Assembly: GCA_023485405.1 (NCBI GenBank)
Contig: JAMCZU010000032.1
Location: 400 to 64,399 of the forward strand
DNA from: Patescibacteria group bacterium
GTDB taxonomy: Bacteria; Patescibacteriota; UBA1384; UBA12157; JAENIV01
Length of the DNA: 64,000 nucleotides
Direction: 5' to 3'
This document shows, piece by piece, positions 18,387-38,183 of the stretch. Below the pieces are notes generated by a model. The model was given only the letters and a program-made list of their open reading frames with translations. It had not been told where the DNA came from and made no database searches. Position 1 is the stretch's first letter. Every line of letters starts with the position of its first letter. The translations under genes and the position numbers were made by a program.

Positions 18387-18433
18387 TTACATTCCTAAAC
18401 CTGTTGTCCACCTACGAGGTGGACATTTTGGTT
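18387..18433. repeat. REP2 element copy 1: ttacattcctaaacctgttgtccacct-acg-aggtggacattttggtt
   Basis: palindrome tgtccacct/aggtggaca with the same acg loop core as REP1; overlaps the folD 3' end. Confidence 0.75.
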
Positions 18434-30180: not shown

Positions 30181-30369
30181 CGGCTCAACCGGTGGAGTAT
30201 GACTTTTAAGACTTAAGTAGATCGCTAAAAAAATTGCTAAAATAATGACTCCTTTATTTAGTCTATTTCAAATTTTACCCTATCCATTAATAAAATCAAA
30301 TTTCTGAATATTAAGATAAAATTAAAATAACCTTGTCATAACTCGCTCAAGAATTCAAGAAATAGTTAT

Positions 30370-31176
30370 CTAATCTAATTTTCCATTTTTATCTGTTTTG
30401 TTACCAAAAACAGGCCGAAAACTAAACAATTTTCCTGTTACTAATCCTATAAATTGGCACAAATAATAAAAATTTCTTTTACAGAAATCATATAAATCTT
30501 CTTTATTCGTAAAACCAACTGGATCCTCTTTTGCTAAATGATCAATTTTTTTAGCTTTTATAGCTGGGAAAGATTCGATTTCAGACATAGAAATTTGAAT
30601 ATTAATCGTACCTACTTTAAGTTGACCATAATGACTTGCAAAATCTCTTATTGAACGAGTCCCACTTTCAAAAATGCCAATTTCTTTAAAATAATTATTA
30701 AATTTTTTCAAAAGGCTTAAAATACTTTGTGCTTTCCTCGATTTTGCCTTAGGAACGTTCGAAAGTATATTGTGTAATTTTTTAAATGAATTATTATGTG
30801 AACCAAAAAACAAAGATATAACTCTAGCAATTACTTGTAAACAGGCTTCTTGTTGTAAAATAAAGGCTTCGTATTCGAAAACAATAGCTTCAGATGGTAC
30901 CCCAATAACACCTGGGTAAATACTCGTATGAATCTTGCTTATTTGATTATCATAAATTATTTTTTCTTCTTCCTCCTTTAGCCTTTTCATATGATAATAA
31001 CAAGCATTAATTTTATCAAAACAATCGAAAAGAATCTCTTTTAAATAATATTTTGGTATTTTTAAATTCGCTTTTTCCCTTGTGGGCCAAAAGTATGCAG
31101 ACCAATATTTGTGTCTATAGTTATAATGTGAGGCCACAAAAGATAGCATTTCTTTTGAAATTTCAGGAGGATTCAT
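30370..31176 (-). CDS. hypothetical protein in a very AT-rich (~25% GC) patch
   Basis: 268 aa, no recognizable motif; composition distinct from its neighbours. Confidence 0.3.
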   Translation of the reverse strand: MNPPEISKEMLSFVASHYNYRHKYWSAYFWPTREKANLKIPKYYLKEILFDCFDKINACYYHMKRLKEEEEKIIYDNQISKIHTSIYPGVIGVPSEAIVFEYEAFILQQEACLQVIARVISLFFGSHNNSFKKLHNILSNVPKAKSRKAQSILSLLKKFNNYFKEIGIFESGTRSIRDFASHYGQLKVGTINIQISMSEIESFPAIKAKKIDHLAKEDPVGFTNKEDLYDFCKRNFYYLCQFIGLVTGKLFSFRPVFGNKTDKNGKLD

Positions 31177-31262
31177 GTTAGTAAATACCTCTATAATTTT
31201 ATTTCTTTCGTATTATACCATAAATTAAGATTAAATTCCTCTCAAAAACATTTTTAAAAAAG

Positions 31263-31691
31263 TTAAATATCTTTTGGTTCTATAAATTTAATCTTATCAA
31301 TCGAGGCGCAACATATTTTTCCCTTGATAGAATTTTTGGTCAATTTTTTAAGAACTTTTACTAAAATTCTTTGCGCCGTTTTTGGTTTTGTATCAGTCGC
31401 TTCAATTAAAATCACTCCGTAACTTTTTCTTATCATTTCTTGGTATTTTGAGTCAATTATAAAATCTCTATCAAAAGCTAATAGAATTGCCTCTTCTTTA
31501 ATGCAAGTTTCCAGATGTTTTTGGTCTGTAAGCCCTGGTTTCTTTAAAATTTTGAGTCCTTCAACAACAGTTTGGCCTCGAGACTTTAAAAATTTCCCCG
31601 CCGGAACGGGGAAATTTTCATCTAAGTAGAATTTGAATTTATGCGGGTAAGTAGTCAACCCTCTCCTTAGCATAGCGAATTTTTTCATCAA
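31263..31691 (-). CDS. DUF5615-like PIN/Mut7-C-like putative toxin
   Basis: N-terminal YLDENFP motif; paired with the upstream DUF433 gene. Confidence 0.5.
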   Translation of the reverse strand: MMKKFAMLRRGLTTYPHKFKFYLDENFPVPAGKFLKSRGQTVVEGLKILKKPGLTDQKHLETCIKEEAILLAFDRDFIIDSKYQEMIRKSYGVILIEATDTKPKTAQRILVKVLKKLTKNSIKGKICCASIDKIKFIEPKDI

Positions 31692-31863
31692 AATAATTCA
31701 ACGCAGTTCTCACTTGCTCTCTTTTTAGATGAGGGTAGTCTTTATAGATCTGATCAATATTATCATCAATAATATAATTATAGACTATATCAAAAGATAT
31801 ACGAGTACCAGAAATTCGCTTTTTACCTCCTAAAATATTTTTAGTACAAATAATTTTTGCCAT
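31639..31863 (-). CDS. DUF433-family antitoxin-like protein
   Basis: GGKKRISGTRISFDIVYNYI...YPHLKREQVRTALNY matches the DUF433 pattern. Confidence 0.55.
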   Translation of the reverse strand: MAKIICTKNILGGKKRISGTRISFDIVYNYIIDDNIDQIYKDYPHLKREQVRTALNYFDEKIRYAKERVDYLPA

Positions 31864-31920: not shown

Positions 31921-34887
31921 TTATATTCTTTCCAATAATTCCTCGGAAATTTCGGAAAGAAAACGCGATGGCATATTAGCTTGGATGGAACCATAAAGCA
32001 GGCGCGAACAGGCATAACTAAAATACAGTCTTTTTCGCGCACGGGTAATACCAACATAACAAAGCCGTCGTTCTTCTTCAAGCTCCGCCGGCTCCATGAG
32101 AGAATTGGCATGAGGGAACAAGCCTTCTTCCATTCCCACCATAAAAACAATTGGAAATTCTAAACCCTTGGCGTTATGCAAAGTCATCAATGTGATCGCG
32201 TCAGTCGAACGGTCAAGATTATCAATATCAGAAACTAAAGTAACTTGTTCTAAAAAACTTTCCAGATTTTCGGCCGATGCCGCGACCGATTTTAATTCTT
32301 CAATATTCTCCCACCGTCCTTCCCCTTCTTCGGTGCCATCTAAAATCCAATTTTTATAAGTTGATTTTAGAGCCACTAAATCAATGAGTTCAGAGACTTT
32401 TATTTTTTTTGAAGTTTGACGAAGTTCTTCAATCATTTCTAAAAACTTTAATACTTTTGGATTGTTTTTGTCTATTTGGGATTTCTCGCCAATTCCTCGT
32501 GGGGGGACATTGATAATTCTTTTTTGAGCGACCCGATCGGTTGGATTTAAAATTAATTTCAAATAAGCCAAAATATCCTTAATTTCTCGTCTTTCGTAGA
32601 ATCTTAAAGCGCCAATTAAACGATATGGAATGCCTTTTTGCATCAAGGCTTCTTCAAAAATTCGTGACTGGGCATTAGTTCGATATAAAATCACAAATTG
32701 ATTATAACCGCCTAACATTTTAAGGGCTTCGACTTCGTCAAGAATAAATTCGGCTTCTTCCTTTTCACTTCGTGCTTCAAAAACCGTCGGTGCGATACCA
32801 TCTTCATTGTCAGTCCAAAGTGTTTTTTTACTCCTAACACAATTTTTTTCGATCACACATTGAGCCGAAGCAATAATTTTTTTAGTCGAACGATAATTTT
32901 GTTCCATCTTAATAATTTTCGCCTTAGGATAATCTTTCTCAAAATCTAAAATATTTTTAAAATTAGCACCGCGAAAACCGTAGATGGAGTTGTGAACGAC
33001 AACCCCTTCAGCAATATAATTATGCAAATTTTCAATATCTAGATCGTAAAGAACTTCATTAGTCATCCGACAATTGATACCGATAATTTCGTCTTCAACT
33101 ATTTTGCCGTTGCGAAGAACAGGAATGACCATCCCTGGTCTTAAGTTACTCACCGGCATAAAATCAAAACTCGTTTTACTATCCGTTAGTCGGGCTGATT
33201 TGATAATATCTAAACTATTAATTCCGGCTAATTTTTCAGCCAAAACTAGAGCTTCACTATAATCTTTTCTGGAGGTTTCAATCCGCCAGCTTCTTTTATC
33301 CATTCTAGTTGCGAATCCCATATTTTCAAATTTTTCACGTAATCTAGGATCTGTCGTAGTAATTCTGACTCGATGAGCATGCCAAGGTCTTTGTTGACCA
33401 AGACGATCCTCACCAAACATATTTAAAGTAATAAATTGCCGTCCTTGATATTTTTGCGTAAATTCTAAAGTCACAGCTTGAGGACGATGATGCGGAAAAT
33501 CCCACTTTAGATCTAAATCTTCTAATAAATTTTTGGCTCTTTTTTTGGTATCTATATTTTTAAATAACATGTCAATGTGTTCTTGCCGAATTTGCATAGT
33601 TCTACCTTGATTAAAAAATATAGAAGTTGGTATACCATAATAACTTGAAAAAAAGGCTTCATAATACTTAGCCTCCGAAAGATTCTTACAGATTTTTAAA
33701 ATCCACATTCTATCTGCTTTTTCTTGATTTGCTCGTACCTGTAATCCGTGAGCCGTTTCATGACCTTTTTTCCCATATCTAATACTTTTAGTAAAACCTA
33801 TCCTATATCCTTTATCTCTGCGAAACATTAAATAAACAAAAAAACTATCCTTGATTAGTTTCCATTTAGAGAAGAAAATGTGTTCAGAACTCGCCTCGAT
33901 CATATGTCCACTTTTTGTTTCAATTTGCCAAACTTTTCCTTTAAAATTTCGTTTAAAAACTTTTGATACCTCTGATTTCGTAGTAGTACCGTATCCATTA
34001 GCACAGATAACTTTGTCTTTCGGCTTAATTAATCTTATTTCTTTCTGACCTTCAGAAGTTAGTACTTTAGTCTTGCCAGATAAACATTGAAAATCATCCC
34101 CCACCACACAAATATTTTGATATTTTTTAGCTAAAAGAGTACTAAAACGATATTGCGCAAAATTGGTATCTTGATACTCGTCAATTAAAATATAACGAAA
34201 TTGATCTTGGTAGCGTGCTAAAACTGCCGGAAATTTTTCGAAAAGTTCCACAGTTTTAAAAAGTAAATCATCAAAATCCAGGGCGTTCGCGATTTTTAAA
34301 TCTTTTTGATACTGCTGGTAAATTTTTAAAACAATTTCACCAAAATGACCTTTGGAAAATTTGGCATAATTTTGAGGATTTAGAAGTTCATTTTTAGCTC
34401 CAGAAATATAATTTCTAATCACTCGAGGGTTATATTGTTTTTTATCAATTCCCACAACATCCATCGCATGTTTTACCGCCGATAAAGAATCGTCGCTGTC
34501 ATAAATATTAAAAGAACGAGTGTAATCTAAATTTTGAATATTAAAACGCAAAATCTTGGCGCAGATAGAATGAAACGTCCCTAGCCATGGCAGCTTTGAA
34601 ATTTGAAATTTAGAATTTGAAATTCCGAGTAACTTTGTTACTCGACTGGCCATTTCTTCAGCCGCTTTGTTGGTAAAAGTCACAGCTAAAATATTTTCCG
34701 GATGAATTTTTTTTTCACAAATTAAATAAGCAATTCGATGAGTTAAAGCTTTAGTTTTACCAGAACCTGCCCCTGCTAAAATTAAAACCGGTCCTTCGGT
34801 TGTAATAACCGCTTCTTTTTGTTCGGTGTTTAAATTTTCTAAAATATCTAAATTCATTGCACGACTTATTATACAACAAGATAGCAA
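31921..34887 (-). CDS. uvrD: UvrD/PcrA-family DNA helicase containing an intein; likely true start is the ATG at 34857 (MNLDILENLN)
   Basis: Walker A AGAGSGKT, motif III VVGDDFQ|intein|SIYGFRGA, motifs V/VI (VTLMTLHNAKGLEF, YVGITRAR). Confidence 0.9.
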   Translation of the reverse strand: MLSCCIISRAMNLDILENLNTEQKEAVITTEGPVLILAGAGSGKTKALTHRIAYLICEKKIHPENILAVTFTNKAAEEMASRVTKLLGISNSKFQISKLPWLGTFHSICAKILRFNIQNLDYTRSFNIYDSDDSLSAVKHAMDVVGIDKKQYNPRVIRNYISGAKNELLNPQNYAKFSKGHFGEIVLKIYQQYQKDLKIANALDFDDLLFKTVELFEKFPAVLARYQDQFRYILIDEYQDTNFAQYRFSTLLAKKYQNICVVGDDFQCLSGKTKVLTSEGQKEIRLIKPKDKVICANGYGTTTKSEVSKVFKRNFKGKVWQIETKSGHMIEASSEHIFFSKWKLIKDSFFVYLMFRRDKGYRIGFTKSIRYGKKGHETAHGLQVRANQEKADRMWILKICKNLSEAKYYEAFFSSYYGIPTSIFFNQGRTMQIRQEHIDMLFKNIDTKKRAKNLLEDLDLKWDFPHHRPQAVTLEFTQKYQGRQFITLNMFGEDRLGQQRPWHAHRVRITTTDPRLREKFENMGFATRMDKRSWRIETSRKDYSEALVLAEKLAGINSLDIIKSARLTDSKTSFDFMPVSNLRPGMVIPVLRNGKIVEDEIIGINCRMTNEVLYDLDIENLHNYIAEGVVVHNSIYGFRGANFKNILDFEKDYPKAKIIKMEQNYRSTKKIIASAQCVIEKNCVRSKKTLWTDNEDGIAPTVFEARSEKEEAEFILDEVEALKMLGGYNQFVILYRTNAQSRIFEEALMQKGIPYRLIGALRFYERREIKDILAYLKLILNPTDRVAQKRIINVPPRGIGEKSQIDKNNPKVLKFLEMIEELRQTSKKIKVSELIDLVALKSTYKNWILDGTEEGEGRWENIEELKSVAASAENLESFLEQVTLVSDIDNLDRSTDAITLMTLHNAKGLEFPIVFMVGMEEGLFPHANSLMEPAELEEERRLCYVGITRARKRLYFSYACSRLLYGSIQANMPSRFLSEISEELLERI
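32989..34086 (-). other. intein (366 aa) inserted in UvrD motif III
   Basis: begins CLSGKTKV right after GDDFQ, ends VVHN immediately before SIYGFRGAN; extein junction reconstitutes GDDFQSIYGFRGA. Confidence 0.8.
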
Positions 34888-34920
34888 AAAGGCGTATCAA
34901 ATTGATACGCCTTGTCAAAA
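34886..34920 (-). terminator. hairpin terminator ggcgtatca-aat-tgatacgcc flanked by A and T tracts
   Basis: 9-bp perfect stem; on the minus strand it is followed by cttttt; lies between the GC-rich RNA-like locus and the uvrD start. Confidence 0.45.
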
Positions 34921-34926
34921 AATAGC

Positions 34927-35475
34927 GTCAGGAACGGATAGTTCTTAGTACGGATCGGATCAATCCATTCCCGAGTCCGGGGTTTGCTTGTCTCCCCACG
35001 CTCTGTGCCTGTGTACTCCGGCCGATTCCAGCCTTCCACAGAGTTCGCGTAGCCGGAAGTGGCTGTTAATTTTTGTGCTTTTTTATTTTCTGGTTTTTCG
35101 CGCCTTTTGCGCAGAATATAACCTTCAAGCTTGGCCTTTGCTTGAAGCCAGCCGCCAATTATAGATAGCACGGCCCGACCTATTTTATTGCTTCTGTTTC
35201 AAGACCTTCTTTTTCCTTTCCGTACTAAGGGAAATTTGGGTCTCTAGCTGGTCGGTCTGTTCCCAGCAAACTGATAATATTCTATCATAGATTAGTTACA
35301 ATGTCAAGACTTTTTGGTAAATTAAAAGGCGCGATCGGAATCGGCCCAAATATACTTTAAATTATTGGCCGTCGTCGCGCCTTTATGGTATGGGCAAAGT
35401 AATTGGCTTTGTCCCTACCATAAGCATAAGCTTACAGTAAGAACAGCATAACTCCACCCCTGTTCTTCTCATCGT
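34927..35475 (+). ncRNA. GC-rich ORF-free structured-RNA candidate (possibly RNase P RNA-like; strand and identity uncertain)
   Basis: 10-bp long-range complements cttagtacgg (34945) / ccgtactaag (35221) and cggccgattcc (35018) / ggaatcggcc (35338); gagtccgggg plus downstream acggcccgacc resemble RNase P CR-I/CR-V (a P4 with a bulged nucleotide); gcttgaagccag P15-like; terminal hairpin plus U tract near 35436-35480. Confidence 0.3.
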
Positions 35476-35530
35476 TTTATTTCGATGATTACATTATTAT
35501 ACCGTATTTTAGACCAAAAGTCAATGGTTC

Positions 35531-35578
35531 TTTACATTCCTAAACCTATTGTCCACCTACGAGGTGGACATTTCGGTT
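35531..35578. repeat. REP2 element copy 2: tttacattcctaaacctattgtccacct-acg-aggtggacatttcggtt
   Basis: near-identical to the copy at 18387; abuts the dnaB stop. Confidence 0.75.
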
Positions 35579-38183
35579 ATGTCTCCTTTAGCTTCTTTTC
35601 GATGGTAGCAAACTTCATATATTCTGGTTTCCAGTAAAGTTGAACGTCGCCAGTGGGACCATGACGATGCTTGCGGATTAAAATTTCGGCAATATTTTTC
35701 TTTTCGGAATCTTGTTCATACATCTCGTCACGATAAATAAACATCACCACGTCGGCGTCTTGTTCTATGGAATTATGAACAACAATATCGTTAGCGATAA
35801 AATTATGGTTTTTTGGCACCGTTATATCATAAACTGATTCAACACCAACTTCCTTAATTTCAGCTATTTCATCCCAAAAAATATCCGAATCAGCCAAATC
35901 ACTAAGCACACCATCTCCTAAAACTTGGGCGATACTAGAAAGACGATTTCTAGAAATGCCATTATTATATCGCTGCGTGCCAGAATATGCCCATTGCATT
36001 TCTTGGTGGAATTGTCTCGTTGTCCAACCTAAATCCGTAAATTTTTGCACAATTTTCTGCCAAATATCTTTAGGAATAATATCAACATTAGTGTTTGGCT
36101 CGATTTGCCTTAAATCTTTAATTGCTTTTTTAACAATTTTATCTTTGCGACCAAAAATCCCGATCTCTTCCATAAATTTTAATTGATTTTCCGACCCTGA
36201 AATTACAAGATCAAAGACTGGCAAATACCCCCTCTTTTTATTGATTTTAATTCTTGATTGTATCTCAAAACGAAGCAATAAATGCTGTAAGCTTTTAATT
36301 AGTTTTTCACTTTTAGAAGCATAATGTAATCGCCAAATTCCCGAAGAAAAAGTCAAACCACCATCAGTTGAAAAAAGATGTCTGACAAAAAGAGCCAATT
36401 GCTTTTGAGATAATGTAAAGATAAGCTCAGGAATTTCTTTTTCACCAGAACGTTGGTCAAAAATCCCCAATTCTTCATCGAGCCACTTTACGATGGGATT
36501 TCTCCGACCACGAGCCAATGGCGCTGGTGCAGAAAGGTAAAGATGAAACCAAGTTTTTTGTTTAACTAAACGATTTTTTGTTCCAAATGCTTTTTGAGAC
36601 GCTCGATCAACAATACTAATACTTTCTGGATCAGCATTGGTGTAATGAAGTGGTTGATGTTTAAGATAGCATCCATCACCAATTAAATGAGCAAGTACAA
36701 TAATTTTTTCGTCTGACATTGTCACAATATTTTTAAAATCAATTCGCCGAGGGGTTGCTAACCGATCACCACCCGCTAATTTATCTAATCTCTCCCAGCC
36801 ATTAATAGTCATAAATTGATGATTGGCTGTTGCCTTAATTTTCCGGCCGCTTTTAAAAATAAGTTCAAAAACTTTTTTTCTTCCTGTTGAAAAGACTTTA
36901 TTGGCTATTTCTTTGAGTAATTTACCTTGTCCATCAACTGTTAAAACAGTAAATTCTTTTTGACCAACTAGTTTTTCAATTGGCTGGCAAATGCCTGTTT
37001 TAGCATTAAAAATTAAAGTGTCGCCGGTTAAACAACCACTCTCTCTAAGATCAGCTAACATTGGTTTTTTATCTGGACGGTGCTCCACTGCTCGGGATAG
37101 TTGCGATAAAGCTAATATTGGTACATTTAATTCCCTAGCTAAGGCTTTGAGTGAGCGGGAAATTTCCGAAACTTCTTGGACCCGATTGTCAGAACCCTTC
37201 GTGCTCATCCCCGACATTAATTGCAAATAATCAATCACAATTAAACCAAGATCTTGCTCCATCAAAAGTCGGCGACCTTTAGTTCTAATTTCCATCACAT
37301 TTAAAAAGGGTGAGTCATCAATAAAAATGGGTGTTTCTGAAAGCATCCCCATGGCATAATTTAATTTACCGAAATCTTCATCTTCCAAATTACCGGTACG
37401 TAACTTCCAGGAATCAACTGAACCTCGAAGGCACAAGAGTCGGTCAATAATCTGTTCTTTGGACATTTCCAACGAGAAAATTCCGACCGCTTGTTTATGT
37501 TCACAAGCAACATGATCGGCAATATTTAAAGCAAAAGCCGATTTACCCACCGACGGCCGAGCCGCCAGGATCACTAAATCTGATTTTTGCAAACCAGCCA
37601 GGACATTGTCTAAATCCCGAAAACCAGTCGGCACGCCTCGAATTGCCCCTTTTTCTTTGTGCAACTTGTCAATTCGATCAAAAGAATCAGCTAAAATATC
37701 TTTAATTGGCGTGAAATACTGTTTAACATATTTTTGCGAAACACTAAATAAAGTACTTTCGGCCCGATCTAAAATTGTCTCGAGTTCAGAATTTTCATCA
37801 AAACCAAGCTCGGTGATAGTCGCCGCGGCTGTGACTAAGCGCCTTAAAGTTGCTTTTTGATGAACAATATTAGCATAAGTTGTGATATGAGCAGCGGTTG
37901 GTACCGAATTGACCAAAGTAGCAATGTACGATGCACCACCAATACTTTTCAGTTTCTTATCTTTTTCTAATTCGTTGGTCAAAGTGACCACGTCAATCGG
38001 TTTTCGTTTTTCAAACAGTTTAATAATACAACTATATATAGTAGCGTGATCTTCGCGGTAAAAATCATCCGATCGCAAAATATCAGCCACTTTAATAATG
38101 GCATTTTGATCCAAAAGCACTGAACCTAGAACTGATTGCTCTGCTTCAATATTTTGTGGGGGAACCTTTATGCCGTCGGGCAT
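35577..38183 (-). CDS. dnaB: replicative DNA helicase DnaB containing an intein
   Basis: Walker A ARPSVGKSAF; H4 motif split as KPMLADLRESG|intein|SIEQDADVVMF. Confidence 0.9.
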   Translation of the reverse strand: MPDGIKVPPQNIEAEQSVLGSVLLDQNAIIKVADILRSDDFYREDHATIYSCIIKLFEKRKPIDVVTLTNELEKDKKLKSIGGASYIATLVNSVPTAAHITTYANIVHQKATLRRLVTAAATITELGFDENSELETILDRAESTLFSVSQKYVKQYFTPIKDILADSFDRIDKLHKEKGAIRGVPTGFRDLDNVLAGLQKSDLVILAARPSVGKSAFALNIADHVACEHKQAVGIFSLEMSKEQIIDRLLCLRGSVDSWKLRTGNLEDEDFGKLNYAMGMLSETPIFIDDSPFLNVMEIRTKGRRLLMEQDLGLIVIDYLQLMSGMSTKGSDNRVQEVSEISRSLKALARELNVPILALSQLSRAVEHRPDKKPMLADLRESGCLTGDTLIFNAKTGICQPIEKLVGQKEFTVLTVDGQGKLLKEIANKVFSTGRKKVFELIFKSGRKIKATANHQFMTINGWERLDKLAGGDRLATPRRIDFKNIVTMSDEKIIVLAHLIGDGCYLKHQPLHYTNADPESISIVDRASQKAFGTKNRLVKQKTWFHLYLSAPAPLARGRRNPIVKWLDEELGIFDQRSGEKEIPELIFTLSQKQLALFVRHLFSTDGGLTFSSGIWRLHYASKSEKLIKSLQHLLLRFEIQSRIKINKKRGYLPVFDLVISGSENQLKFMEEIGIFGRKDKIVKKAIKDLRQIEPNTNVDIIPKDIWQKIVQKFTDLGWTTRQFHQEMQWAYSGTQRYNNGISRNRLSSIAQVLGDGVLSDLADSDIFWDEIAEIKEVGVESVYDITVPKNHNFIANDIVVHNSIEQDADVVMFIYRDEMYEQDSEKKNIAEILIRKHRHGPTGDVQLYWKPEYMKFATIEKKLKET
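35772..37034 (-). other. intein (421 aa) with double-motif LAGLIDADG homing endonuclease in the DnaB H4 motif
   Basis: starts CLTGDTLI after RESG, ends IVVHN before SIEQDAD; internal LAHLIGDGCY and FVRHLFSTDGG LAGLIDADG-like motifs. Confidence 0.85.

Follow-up and report, generated by a model that had tools for sequence, protein, structure and literature searches.

A 64,000-nucleotide stretch of contig JAMCZU010000032.1, from the assembly GCA_023485405.1 of a Patescibacteria group bacterium (hereafter, the window), carries two neighbouring minus-strand helicase genes, uvrD of the pcrA type and dnaB, and each of them is interrupted by an intein. We interpret these as two independent class-1 inteins, the one in DnaB being of a familiar kind with a LAGLIDADG domain, and the one in UvrD probably carrying a homing domain that resembles GIY-YIG nucleases. 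For this explanation as a whole we estimate a probability of about 0.75. That both inserts are real and mutually unrelated inteins we regard as close to certain; statements on the nature of the domain inside the UvrD intein are made with less confidence and are graded below.

The uvrD open reading frame (ORF) covers positions 31921-34887 of the minus strand and encodes 988 amino acids (aa) if counted from the first TTG codon (34887). The true start is likely the ATG at 34857 (MNLDIL…), at which the orthologue in L001, a metagenome-assembled genome (MAG) of another member of Patescibacteria, also begins. Its product was matched by Pfam UvrD-helicase (4e-82) and UvrD_C (5e-72) and by the NCBIfam pcrA model TIGR01073 (766 bits). 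The DnaB protein was matched end to end by NCBIfam NF005852, a model of DnaB that includes its intein (1080 bits, cut-off 780); an exact look-up of this protein in the contig collection returned no match. The UvrD-helicase and UvrD_C domains flank the insert in UvrD, and DnaB and DnaB_C that in DnaB. The distance between both ORFs is 689 bp, or 719 bp if measured from the probable uvrD ATG, in agreement with the spacing of about 700 bp given in an earlier reading of the bare DNA letters (the original prediction).

Both inserts were identified as inteins by Pfam Intein_splicing (1.8e-14 for UvrD and 8e-30 for DnaB) and by the NCBIfam models of the intein N-terminus (TIGR01445; 35.9 and 48.5 bits, respectively, cut-off 24.5) and C-terminus (TIGR01443; 23.9 and 36.7 bits, cut-off 15.6). 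They begin with Cys1 (CLSGKT… in UvrD, CLTGDT… in DnaB), have a block B of the pattern (T/S)xxH (SSEH at intein aa 66-69 and TANH at aa 69-72, correspondingly) and share the block F Asp and His, the terminal His-Asn and a Ser at position +1. Blocks F and G of the UvrD intein read VLYDLDIENLHNYIAEGVVVHN, followed by this Ser. The UvrD intein structure predicted with AlphaFold2 (AF2; predicted local distance difference test score, pLDDT, 78) resembled solved inteins, with 28 intein or Hint matches from the PDB at E<=1e-3; template modelling (TM) scores for the mini-inteins of Ssp DnaB, Npu DnaB and Mtu RecA were 0.77-0.81, with up to 0.81 for that of Ssp DnaB. By sequence, its best solved relative was the Pho RadA intein (E 9e-6). 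The Hint parts of the DnaB intein matched the solved Ssp and Npu DnaB mini-inteins with E-values of 3e-33 to 8e-31. LAGLIDADG_3 (PF14528) was found in the DnaB insert only (66 bits, cut-off 22.5; 3e-18), where both tandem motifs could be read directly.

With junctions marked by hyphens, the UvrD precursor reads GDDFQ-CLSG…VVHN-SIYGFRGA and the DnaB precursor RESG-CLTG…VVHN-SIEQDAD. Removal of the inteins restores motif III of UvrD (GDDFQ-SIYGFRGA) and motif H4 of DnaB (RESG-SIEQDAD), and the fused, intein-less uvrD site corresponds at the DNA level to …GTGGTGGGGGATGATTTTCAA-TCCATCTACGGTTTTCGCGGT…. We take RESG-SIEQD to be the insertion point of the Ssp DnaB intein. The original prediction had placed inteins of 366 aa in motif III of UvrD and of 421 aa in motif H4 of DnaB, with CL(S/T)G starts, VVHN ends, a Ser at +1 and tandem LAGLIDADG motifs in the latter. 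Coordinates, lengths and junctions proved exact in both cases, and its description of the motifs was borne out by the domain searches and by the reconstituted helicase motifs. No third intein was detected in the window, either by tblastn with both inteins or by a scan of all window ORFs with Hint profiles.

One further proposal, that a single intein family had colonised two P-loop NTPase motifs, did not withstand comparison of the two inteins. It would have the element spread within this genome and the UvrD and DnaB inteins be close relatives, and it draws on their common CL(S/T)G…VVHN ends with the subsequent Ser and on Hint termini that can be aligned: pairwise BLASTP gave 24/77 identities (31%) over the first 77 residues and 18/47 (38%) over the last 47, with E ~2e-5 each. 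However, the alignable part amounts to about 120 aa in total and does not extend beyond the generic Hint N and C blocks, whose usual consensus in blocks A and G is CL(S/T)G and VVHN, respectively. Between these blocks the two sequences are unrelated, with a LAGLIDADG domain in DnaB and an unannotated domain in UvrD, and each intein has much nearer relatives among those that occupy its own site elsewhere: taken by itself, the DnaB intein scored 447 bits with NF005852, and the UvrD intein insert is 38-50% identical to the inserts of other UvrD motif III inteins. Moreover, profiles of UvrD-intein Hint domains scored the DnaB intein (E 2e-6 and 4e-11) far below the UvrD intein itself (1e-25 and 2.5e-28). 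The spread of one family to both motifs is very improbable.

To place the inteins in their genomic setting, species-representative genomes were searched with the spliced UvrD sequence. The closest matches were found in Patescibacteria MAGs L001 (79% identity) and L002 (69%) and in Berkelbacteria MAG L003 (57%), and the insertion sites were empty in all three, i.e. intein-less dnaB and uvrD alleles do exist in relatives. L001 has the same dnaX-dnaB-uvrD gene order, with a DnaB of 459 aa and a UvrD of 613 aa and neither intein; the extein halves from the window abut exactly and are colinear with these proteins. Its empty sites read RESG-SIEQDAD in DnaB and GDDAQ-AIYGFRGA in UvrD (L001 10001-11842). 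Among the 80 closest UvrD loci of the species-representative genomes, none showed an intein-sized match. Judging from these alignments, the gene neighbourhood is conserved and both inteins were added to it sporadically. Their adjacency follows from the conserved dnaX-dnaB-uvrD synteny, seen also in the intein-less L001; as an instance the pair is routine, and the inteins adjoin only because the genes do. The UvrD intein has the same GC content (0.34) and GC content at third codon positions (GC3, 0.24) as its host gene, and the GC3 of the DnaB intein (0.23) is below that of its exteins (0.34-0.45).

It should be added that in UvrD of L001 the +1 residue is Ala, in contrast to the Ser or Cys of UvrDs that carry an intein. 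As Ala provides no splicing nucleophile, an intein at this site would not be tolerated without a change to Ser or Cys, and the L001 allele may hence be refractory to stable intein invasion. A Patescibacteria genome with both inteins and a nearest relative with both sites empty form a clean presence/absence pair for the study of intein gain and loss in reduced genomes.

The source being a metagenome-type genome, the inserts might also be seen as non-functional, the two genes as disrupted pseudogenes or the inserts as assembly chimeras. This is extremely improbable, since both inserts are in frame and free of stop codons over 1098 nt (UvrD) and 1263 nt (DnaB), all catalytic intein residues are present, and the junctions coincide to the residue with intein sites that are occupied in hundreds of other genomes.

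What distinguishes the UvrD intein is the domain of about 220 aa between its Hint halves. An exhaustive search with intein aa 80-300 returned 885 representative clusters (formed at 50% identity) at E<=1e-3 and 341 at E<=1e-10; a word-indexed search found only seven relatives, all of them UvrD/PcrA fragments with an intein at the same place. In all 157 of the 157 proteins examined, the intein was located at UvrD motif III, and every resolvable junction conformed to (V/I)GDxxQ-C…HN-(S/C)IYx(W/F)RGA. Named family members were MAG proteins labelled only as ‘UvrD-helicase domain-containing’, and unusually long ones turned out to be UvrD proteins with two or three inteins at different sites (P0080, P0094, P0103 and P0097). 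In the metagenomic UvrD homologue P0097, the second contiguous intein (aa 250-544) has an in-frame DUF559/REase_MTES_1575 (Vsr-like) domain, a nuclease type reported in the literature for split or antisense intein arrangements.

The insert domain was also present in 69 phage genomes. Escherichia coli phages of the phi92/rV5-like group have the full insert, and some of these proteins are annotated as ‘intein-containing UvrD/Rep family helicase’, e.g. in JohannJBalmer (MZ501084). SPO1-like Bacillus phages including CampHawk carry a 275-aa intein with the N-terminal half of the insert only, the C-terminal subdomain being missing (PMC3868849), and in Streptococcus suis phages this N-terminal half resides inside an intein of a ParB-N6/N4 DNA methylase. 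The N-terminal half can thus exist as a module of its own, and inteins in no fewer than two host genes have it: it occurs alone both in the SPO1-like UvrD inteins and in the Streptococcus phage methylase intein. Taken together, and as far as sequence comparison can tell, the UvrD intein falls into a large family of its own, restricted to motif III of UvrD/PcrA in bacteria and phages; this family is known but has been poorly described, and the intein of the window is a new addition to it.

A case of the methylase arrangement was observed in Streptococcus phage Javan558 (MK448983; L084 1373-3484), whose gene, annotated in GenBank only as ‘adenine-specific methyltransferase’, encodes ParB_N and an N6/N4 DNA methylase with an intein at …QHEP-CQPAG…VTHN-CLYGW…. 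The insert of this intein is a YLM…RVG…W…E…YGIP module, the same as the N-terminal subdomain of the UvrD intein.

Database annotation of the insert is blank. No Pfam, NCBIfam or PDB-sequence match above threshold was obtained for it, and PHROGs offered no name. Neither LAGLIDADG nor HNH domains were matched by Pfam or NCBIfam in the UvrD intein or in 84 members of its family, a point that had been overlooked in the original prediction. Alignment profiles of the N- and C-terminal subdomains found nothing among PDB sequences at E<=10; PHROGs and NCBIfam scans of 40 N-terminal subdomains were uninformative, and a profile search with the N-terminal alignment yielded only 16 short fragments with no Pfam labels. 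The C-terminal subdomain likewise showed no sequence-family match in the Pfam scan of 40 C-terminal halves and the PDB profile search.

The AF2 model of the insert (pLDDT 69, built on 8 sequences) predicts two units. The N-terminal one has the order beta1-beta2-alpha-beta3-alpha followed by three helices, and the C-terminal one the order alpha-beta-beta-alpha-beta-beta-alpha; from this model, the latter is possibly a DNA-binding module. Conservation was assessed from about 90 sequences with 30-50% identity. No or almost no variation was seen at Y85, M87, G97 and E143, and L86, G93, R95, R118, E122, D125, W128 and P153 are conserved in at least 90% of sequences; R95, G97, R118 and E143 reach at least 97%, and R103 78%. 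Position 94 is Tyr in 71% of cases and otherwise Phe. P198 and H199 are conserved at the subdomain boundary, and a looser conserved set in the C-terminal half comprises H238, R239, W267 and R268. Such conservation, as read from the alignment, is unlike that of a decaying endonuclease.

A relation to GIY-YIG, suggested by the context, order and spacing of the conserved residues, was put to test. The residue pattern has a Tyr on the first strand and (Y/F)RxG on the second, followed by an Arg about nine residues further on and then EAxxxE…P, to be compared with EALLLE…P of UvrC. When 40 members were scanned one by one with Pfam, the GIY-YIG family PF01541 was matched by nine of them (best E 0.0025) and other families by three members each at most. 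In an independent set including phage inteins, 7 of 44 matched PF01541 (best E 0.0012) and no other family was matched twice, giving 16 of 84 members in total, all sub-threshold. The same procedure applied as a control to 40 C-terminal halves returned no family more than once. In one inspected member, aa 3-69 were aligned to positions 2-70 of the 78 of the profile. Three family consensus sequences matched PF01541 in the same register (E 0.015-0.17), and shuffled, reversed and C-subdomain consensus controls had no PF01541 match. In hhalign comparisons with UvrC and I-TevI sequences that Pfam recognised as GIY-YIG, VYLM fell on GVY, YRIG on YVG and EAxxxE on EALLLE of UvrC, at non-significant P, and the UvrC and Seg alignments took the expected register despite this. 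When the insert model was compared with viral models, significant matches were phage helicases and methylases with the same domain, and weak GIY-YIG and LAGLIDADG matches appeared further down the list.

A number of results weigh against this assignment. The PF01541 gathering score of 22.6 was not reached, inspected scores being 12.6-16.1 bits, and repeated weak matches are not independent because the family members are related. With hhalign, the N-terminal subdomain gave P of 0.07-0.3, not significant, against the E. coli UvrC N-terminus, the I-TevI N-terminus and a nine-sequence alignment of T4 Seg, Tev and UvrC. A home-made GIY-YIG hidden Markov model was dropped as evidence, as it did not separate the N-terminal from the C-terminal subdomain. 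Foldseek comparison of the insert model with the PDB gave no match at E<=1e-3, and the weak top matches (~90 aligned columns) were LAGLIDADG enzymes and the MotA C-terminal domain and not GIY-YIG proteins, a likeness that most likely reflects the C-terminal unit of the model; the model itself has a pLDDT of only 69 on 8 sequences. Furthermore, ~29% of members have Phe in place of the second motif Tyr, no residue obviously corresponds to the Asn conserved in GIY-YIG enzymes, and the closest homologue of the window insert is only 50% identical to it, a distance that gives no indication of recent mobility. Two other searches yielded nothing for the question: an I-TevI-seeded database search intended for a broad GIY-YIG profile collected only nine close relatives, and neither UvrC nor any other GIY-YIG protein was present in the 80 UvrD loci.

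On balance, the insert in our view probably serves, or once served, as homing nuclease of the element, and we consider its descent from a divergent GIY-YIG domain, suggested by residue pattern and predicted fold, slightly better than an even bet. The fullest version, according to which the insert, found also in the phage DNA methylase intein, is an active homing endonuclease with a highly divergent GIY-YIG core placed in frame in a contiguous intein, is put forward tentatively, at somewhat less than even odds.

A nuclease might have been the wrong expectation altogether: the insert could be a degenerate LAGLIDADG-derived domain, or another DNA-binding or structural domain, in an intein that is immobile and vertically inherited, and could be retained to support folding or splicing or to control UvrD maturation. 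The weak Foldseek matches, of which LAGLIDADG enzymes and the MotA C-terminal domain make up most, would agree with this, as would the failure of the catalytic motif of any recognised nuclease family to reach threshold and the GC and GC3 values equal to those of the host gene, with no sign of recent arrival. We nevertheless find it unlikely. The insert has neither a LAGLIDADG motif nor a LAGLIDADG helix, and across hundreds of clusters its charged and aromatic positions show strict conservation. The intein is patchily distributed, being absent from the 80 closest UvrD genes of species-representative genomes and present in distant bacteria and several phage groups, and the same module occurs in the intein of a different host gene; this patchiness and the second host gene fit an active mobile element.

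The insert might, alternatively, be a homing nuclease of a non-GIY-YIG fold, i.e. a new family of intein endonucleases, with the Pfam signal arising from chance likeness among related sequences. Sub-threshold GIY-YIG scores throughout and non-significant profile-profile tests are compatible with such an origin, and E122, D125, P198-H199, H238-R239 and W267-R268 are near-invariant yet lie outside the GIY-YIG signature. On the other hand, the Pfam matches keep to one register over the whole length of the domain, the controls were negative, and both the predicted topology and the way in which Tyr…(Tyr)Arg-x-Gly…Arg…Glu are ordered and spaced agree with GIY-YIG. We rate a new fold as quite improbable.

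Under the preferred explanation, a homing insert with a GIY-YIG-like core, each precursor would be translated whole and the Hint domain, judging from its conserved residues, would excise the insert after translation. Splicing would proceed from a Cys1 thioester through trans-esterification to the +1 Ser and cyclisation of the terminal Asn, rejoining UvrD motif III and DnaB motif H4, so that both helicases would be made intact. The LAGLIDADG domain of the DnaB intein, in which both acidic residues are present, would cut empty dnaB H4 sites. In the UvrD insert, the N-terminal ~115 aa would represent a very divergent GIY-YIG catalytic core with Y85, (Y94)R95, R103/R118 and E143 as candidate active-site residues, and the C-terminal ~105 aa an accessory DNA-binding module. 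Cleavage by this insert would fall close to the motif III codons of uvrD alleles that lack the intein, and each element would spread when the cut allele is repaired from a copy that contains it.

Table 1. Helicase genes, inteins and intein subdomains in the window, with the evidence for each
Feature	Position	Strand	Evidence or remark
uvrD/pcrA-type SF1 helicase gene, stop codon included	31921..34857	-	Pfam, NCBIfam; start matches L001 orthologue
UvrD N-extein, ends …VVGDDFQ (first half of motif III)	34087..34857	-	Colinear with L001 UvrD 1-258
UvrD intein, 366 aa, class-1 type	32989..34086 (ORF aa 268-633)	-	Pfam, NCBIfam, AF2 model
Insert N-terminal subdomain (intein aa 80-194), putative GIY-YIG-like core; motifs FVYLMFRRDKGYRIGFT, VRANQEKADRMWILK, SEAKYYEAFFSSYYGIPT	33505..33849	-	AF2, conservation, sub-threshold Pfam
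Insert C-terminal subdomain (intein aa 195-300); motifs FPHH, PWHAHRV, SWRIE	33187..33504	-	AF2 model
UvrD C-extein, starts SIYGFRGA (second half of motif III)	31924..32988	-	Colinear with L001 UvrD 259-613
dnaB replicative helicase gene, stop codon included	35577..38183	-	868 aa; NF005852, Pfam DnaB and DnaB_C
DnaB intein, 421 aa, class-1 with LAGLIDADG domain, motif H4	35772..37034 (ORF aa 384-804)	-	Pfam, NCBIfam
DnaB intein, first LAGLIDADG motif IIVLAHLIGDGCY	36666-36704	-	Read from sequence; acidic residue present
DnaB intein, second LAGLIDADG motif LALFVRHLFSTDGG	36357-36398	-	Acidic residue present

The spacer between dnaB and uvrD holds two conserved non-coding elements; neither there nor elsewhere in the window was a known RNA found with Rfam, at gathering and permissive thresholds, or with ARAGORN. 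The first is a candidate structured RNA of ~385 nt (34886-35272, minus strand) with a sigma-70-like promoter TTGACA-17-TAGAAT at 35307-35279 and an intrinsic terminator at 34913-34889. It is 71% identical to the L001 spacer, in which the promoter is kept, and 9 of 74 predicted pairs show compensatory changes in a comparison of two sequences only, including the long-range helix UUAGUACGG/CCGUACUAA. Its folding z-score was -3.0, with no Rfam, tRNA or tmRNA match. A 100-aa ORF at 34869-35171 that overlaps this candidate was rejected as a real gene, as indels in the L001 alignment are not multiples of three.

The second element, of ~145 nt (~35320-35462, minus strand), shows almost no variation among three Patescibacteria genomes with 20-30% divergence at the protein level. 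The element consists of a long imperfect hairpin and then a GC-rich terminator hairpin GGCGCGAC…GTCGCGCC-TTTT, has a promoter-like site upstream at 35524-35496 and no Rfam match, and from these features may be a small RNA gene. Further, the identical palindrome TGTCCACCTACGAGGTGGACA was located at 35550-35570 and 18405-18425, within an element of ~73 nt that is 84% identical between both places, and each copy directly follows a minus-strand gene at its 3' end. The ‘REP2’ of the original prediction is probably this element, a REP-like or terminator-like repeat. Directly downstream of uvrD (31263-31863, minus strand), two small overlapping ORFs of 74 and 142 aa look to us like a pair of DUF433-type antitoxin and DUF5615/PIN-like toxin, which is our assumption; they adjoin a low-GC stretch (0.26-0.29) at 30250-31250 with a 268-aa ORF, as seen from the ORF list and composition profile.

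Both host sites are already known. Inteins are concentrated in replication and repair ATPases, and the 2015 survey of Novikova et al. (PMC4760082) lists DnaB intein sites in motif H4 and 16 UvrD inteins. Compared with the DnaB H4 inteins of Synechocystis (Ssp), Nostoc (Npu) and mycobacteria and with NF005852, the DnaB intein of the window has the same host protein, class-1 residues and two-motif LAGLIDADG insert, and shows no difference of substance; what is new is the host lineage, Patescibacteria, in which the closest relatives are without the intein. By these sequence features it is an ordinary, already known H4 LAGLIDADG intein of the Ssp/Npu/Mtu type.

The UvrD intein shares host family and motif III junction with the described UvrD/PcrA inteins, i.e. 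the 16 of the survey (PMC4760082), those of SPO1 and CampHawk (PMC3868849) and that of JohannJBalmer (MZ501084), none of which sources says what the insert is. The inserts of E. coli phage UvrD inteins are homologous to that of the window, with 28-30% identity over the full 221 aa, whereas those of SPO1-like phages have the N-terminal subdomain only and the window copy has both. In its block B, the window copy has SSEH where the family consensus is TPNH.

The family is large, with 885 clusters and cultivable E. coli and Bacillus phages among its carriers, and the strongly conserved insert has been left blank by databases. The insert domain deserves structural and biochemical study, and the idea of its homing function is directly testable in existing phage-E. 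coli systems. Were it a GIY-YIG homing enzyme, the nuclease types reported for inteins, namely LAGLIDADG, HNH, Vsr-like and EndoVII-like, would grow by one, hundreds of clusters would receive a name, and a new compact site-specific nuclease scaffold would become available. Such an enzyme would also fill a gap raised by Dassa et al. (2009), who considered contiguous inteins gaining nucleases other than LAGLIDADG and HNH.

GIY-YIG enzymes had not been found in inteins as of Dunin-Horkawicz et al. 2006 (PMC1564403), and in a 2025 preprint (10.1101/2025.01.02.630785) the nucleases reported for inteins are of the LAGLIDADG, HNH, Vsr-like and EndoVII-like types, GIY-YIG being named only in a list citing older papers. 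No paper linking UvrD inteins to GIY-YIG was found in the open-access literature, where GIY-YIG was connected with inteins solely through free-standing genes located between split-intein halves, and an earlier description elsewhere is possible. In comparison with the GIY-YIG enzymes I-TevI and the T4 Seg proteins and with the N-terminal domain of UvrC (PF01541), the insert has a predicted beta-beta-alpha-beta-alpha core with an invariant strand-1 Tyr, the strand-2 (Y/F)RxG and Arg and Glu at UvrC-like spacing. It differs from them by its sub-threshold scores, the missing conserved Asn, the second Tyr that is often Phe and the absence of NUMOD, zinc-finger or helix-turn-helix DNA-binding modules, and also by its location: those enzymes occur in introns or free-standing genes, and the insert is fused in frame inside a Hint domain.

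The nearest parallel in arrangement is provided by the ‘fractured genes’ of Dassa et al. 2009 (PMC2677866), in which free-standing GIY-YIG or Vsr-like endonuclease genes lie between the halves of split inteins; the authors predicted that inteins could acquire such nuclease domains. Common to both systems would be an intein combined with a nuclease other than LAGLIDADG or HNH in a helicase or replication gene; in the UvrD intein described here, in contrast, the intein is contiguous and the putative nuclease domain is in frame.

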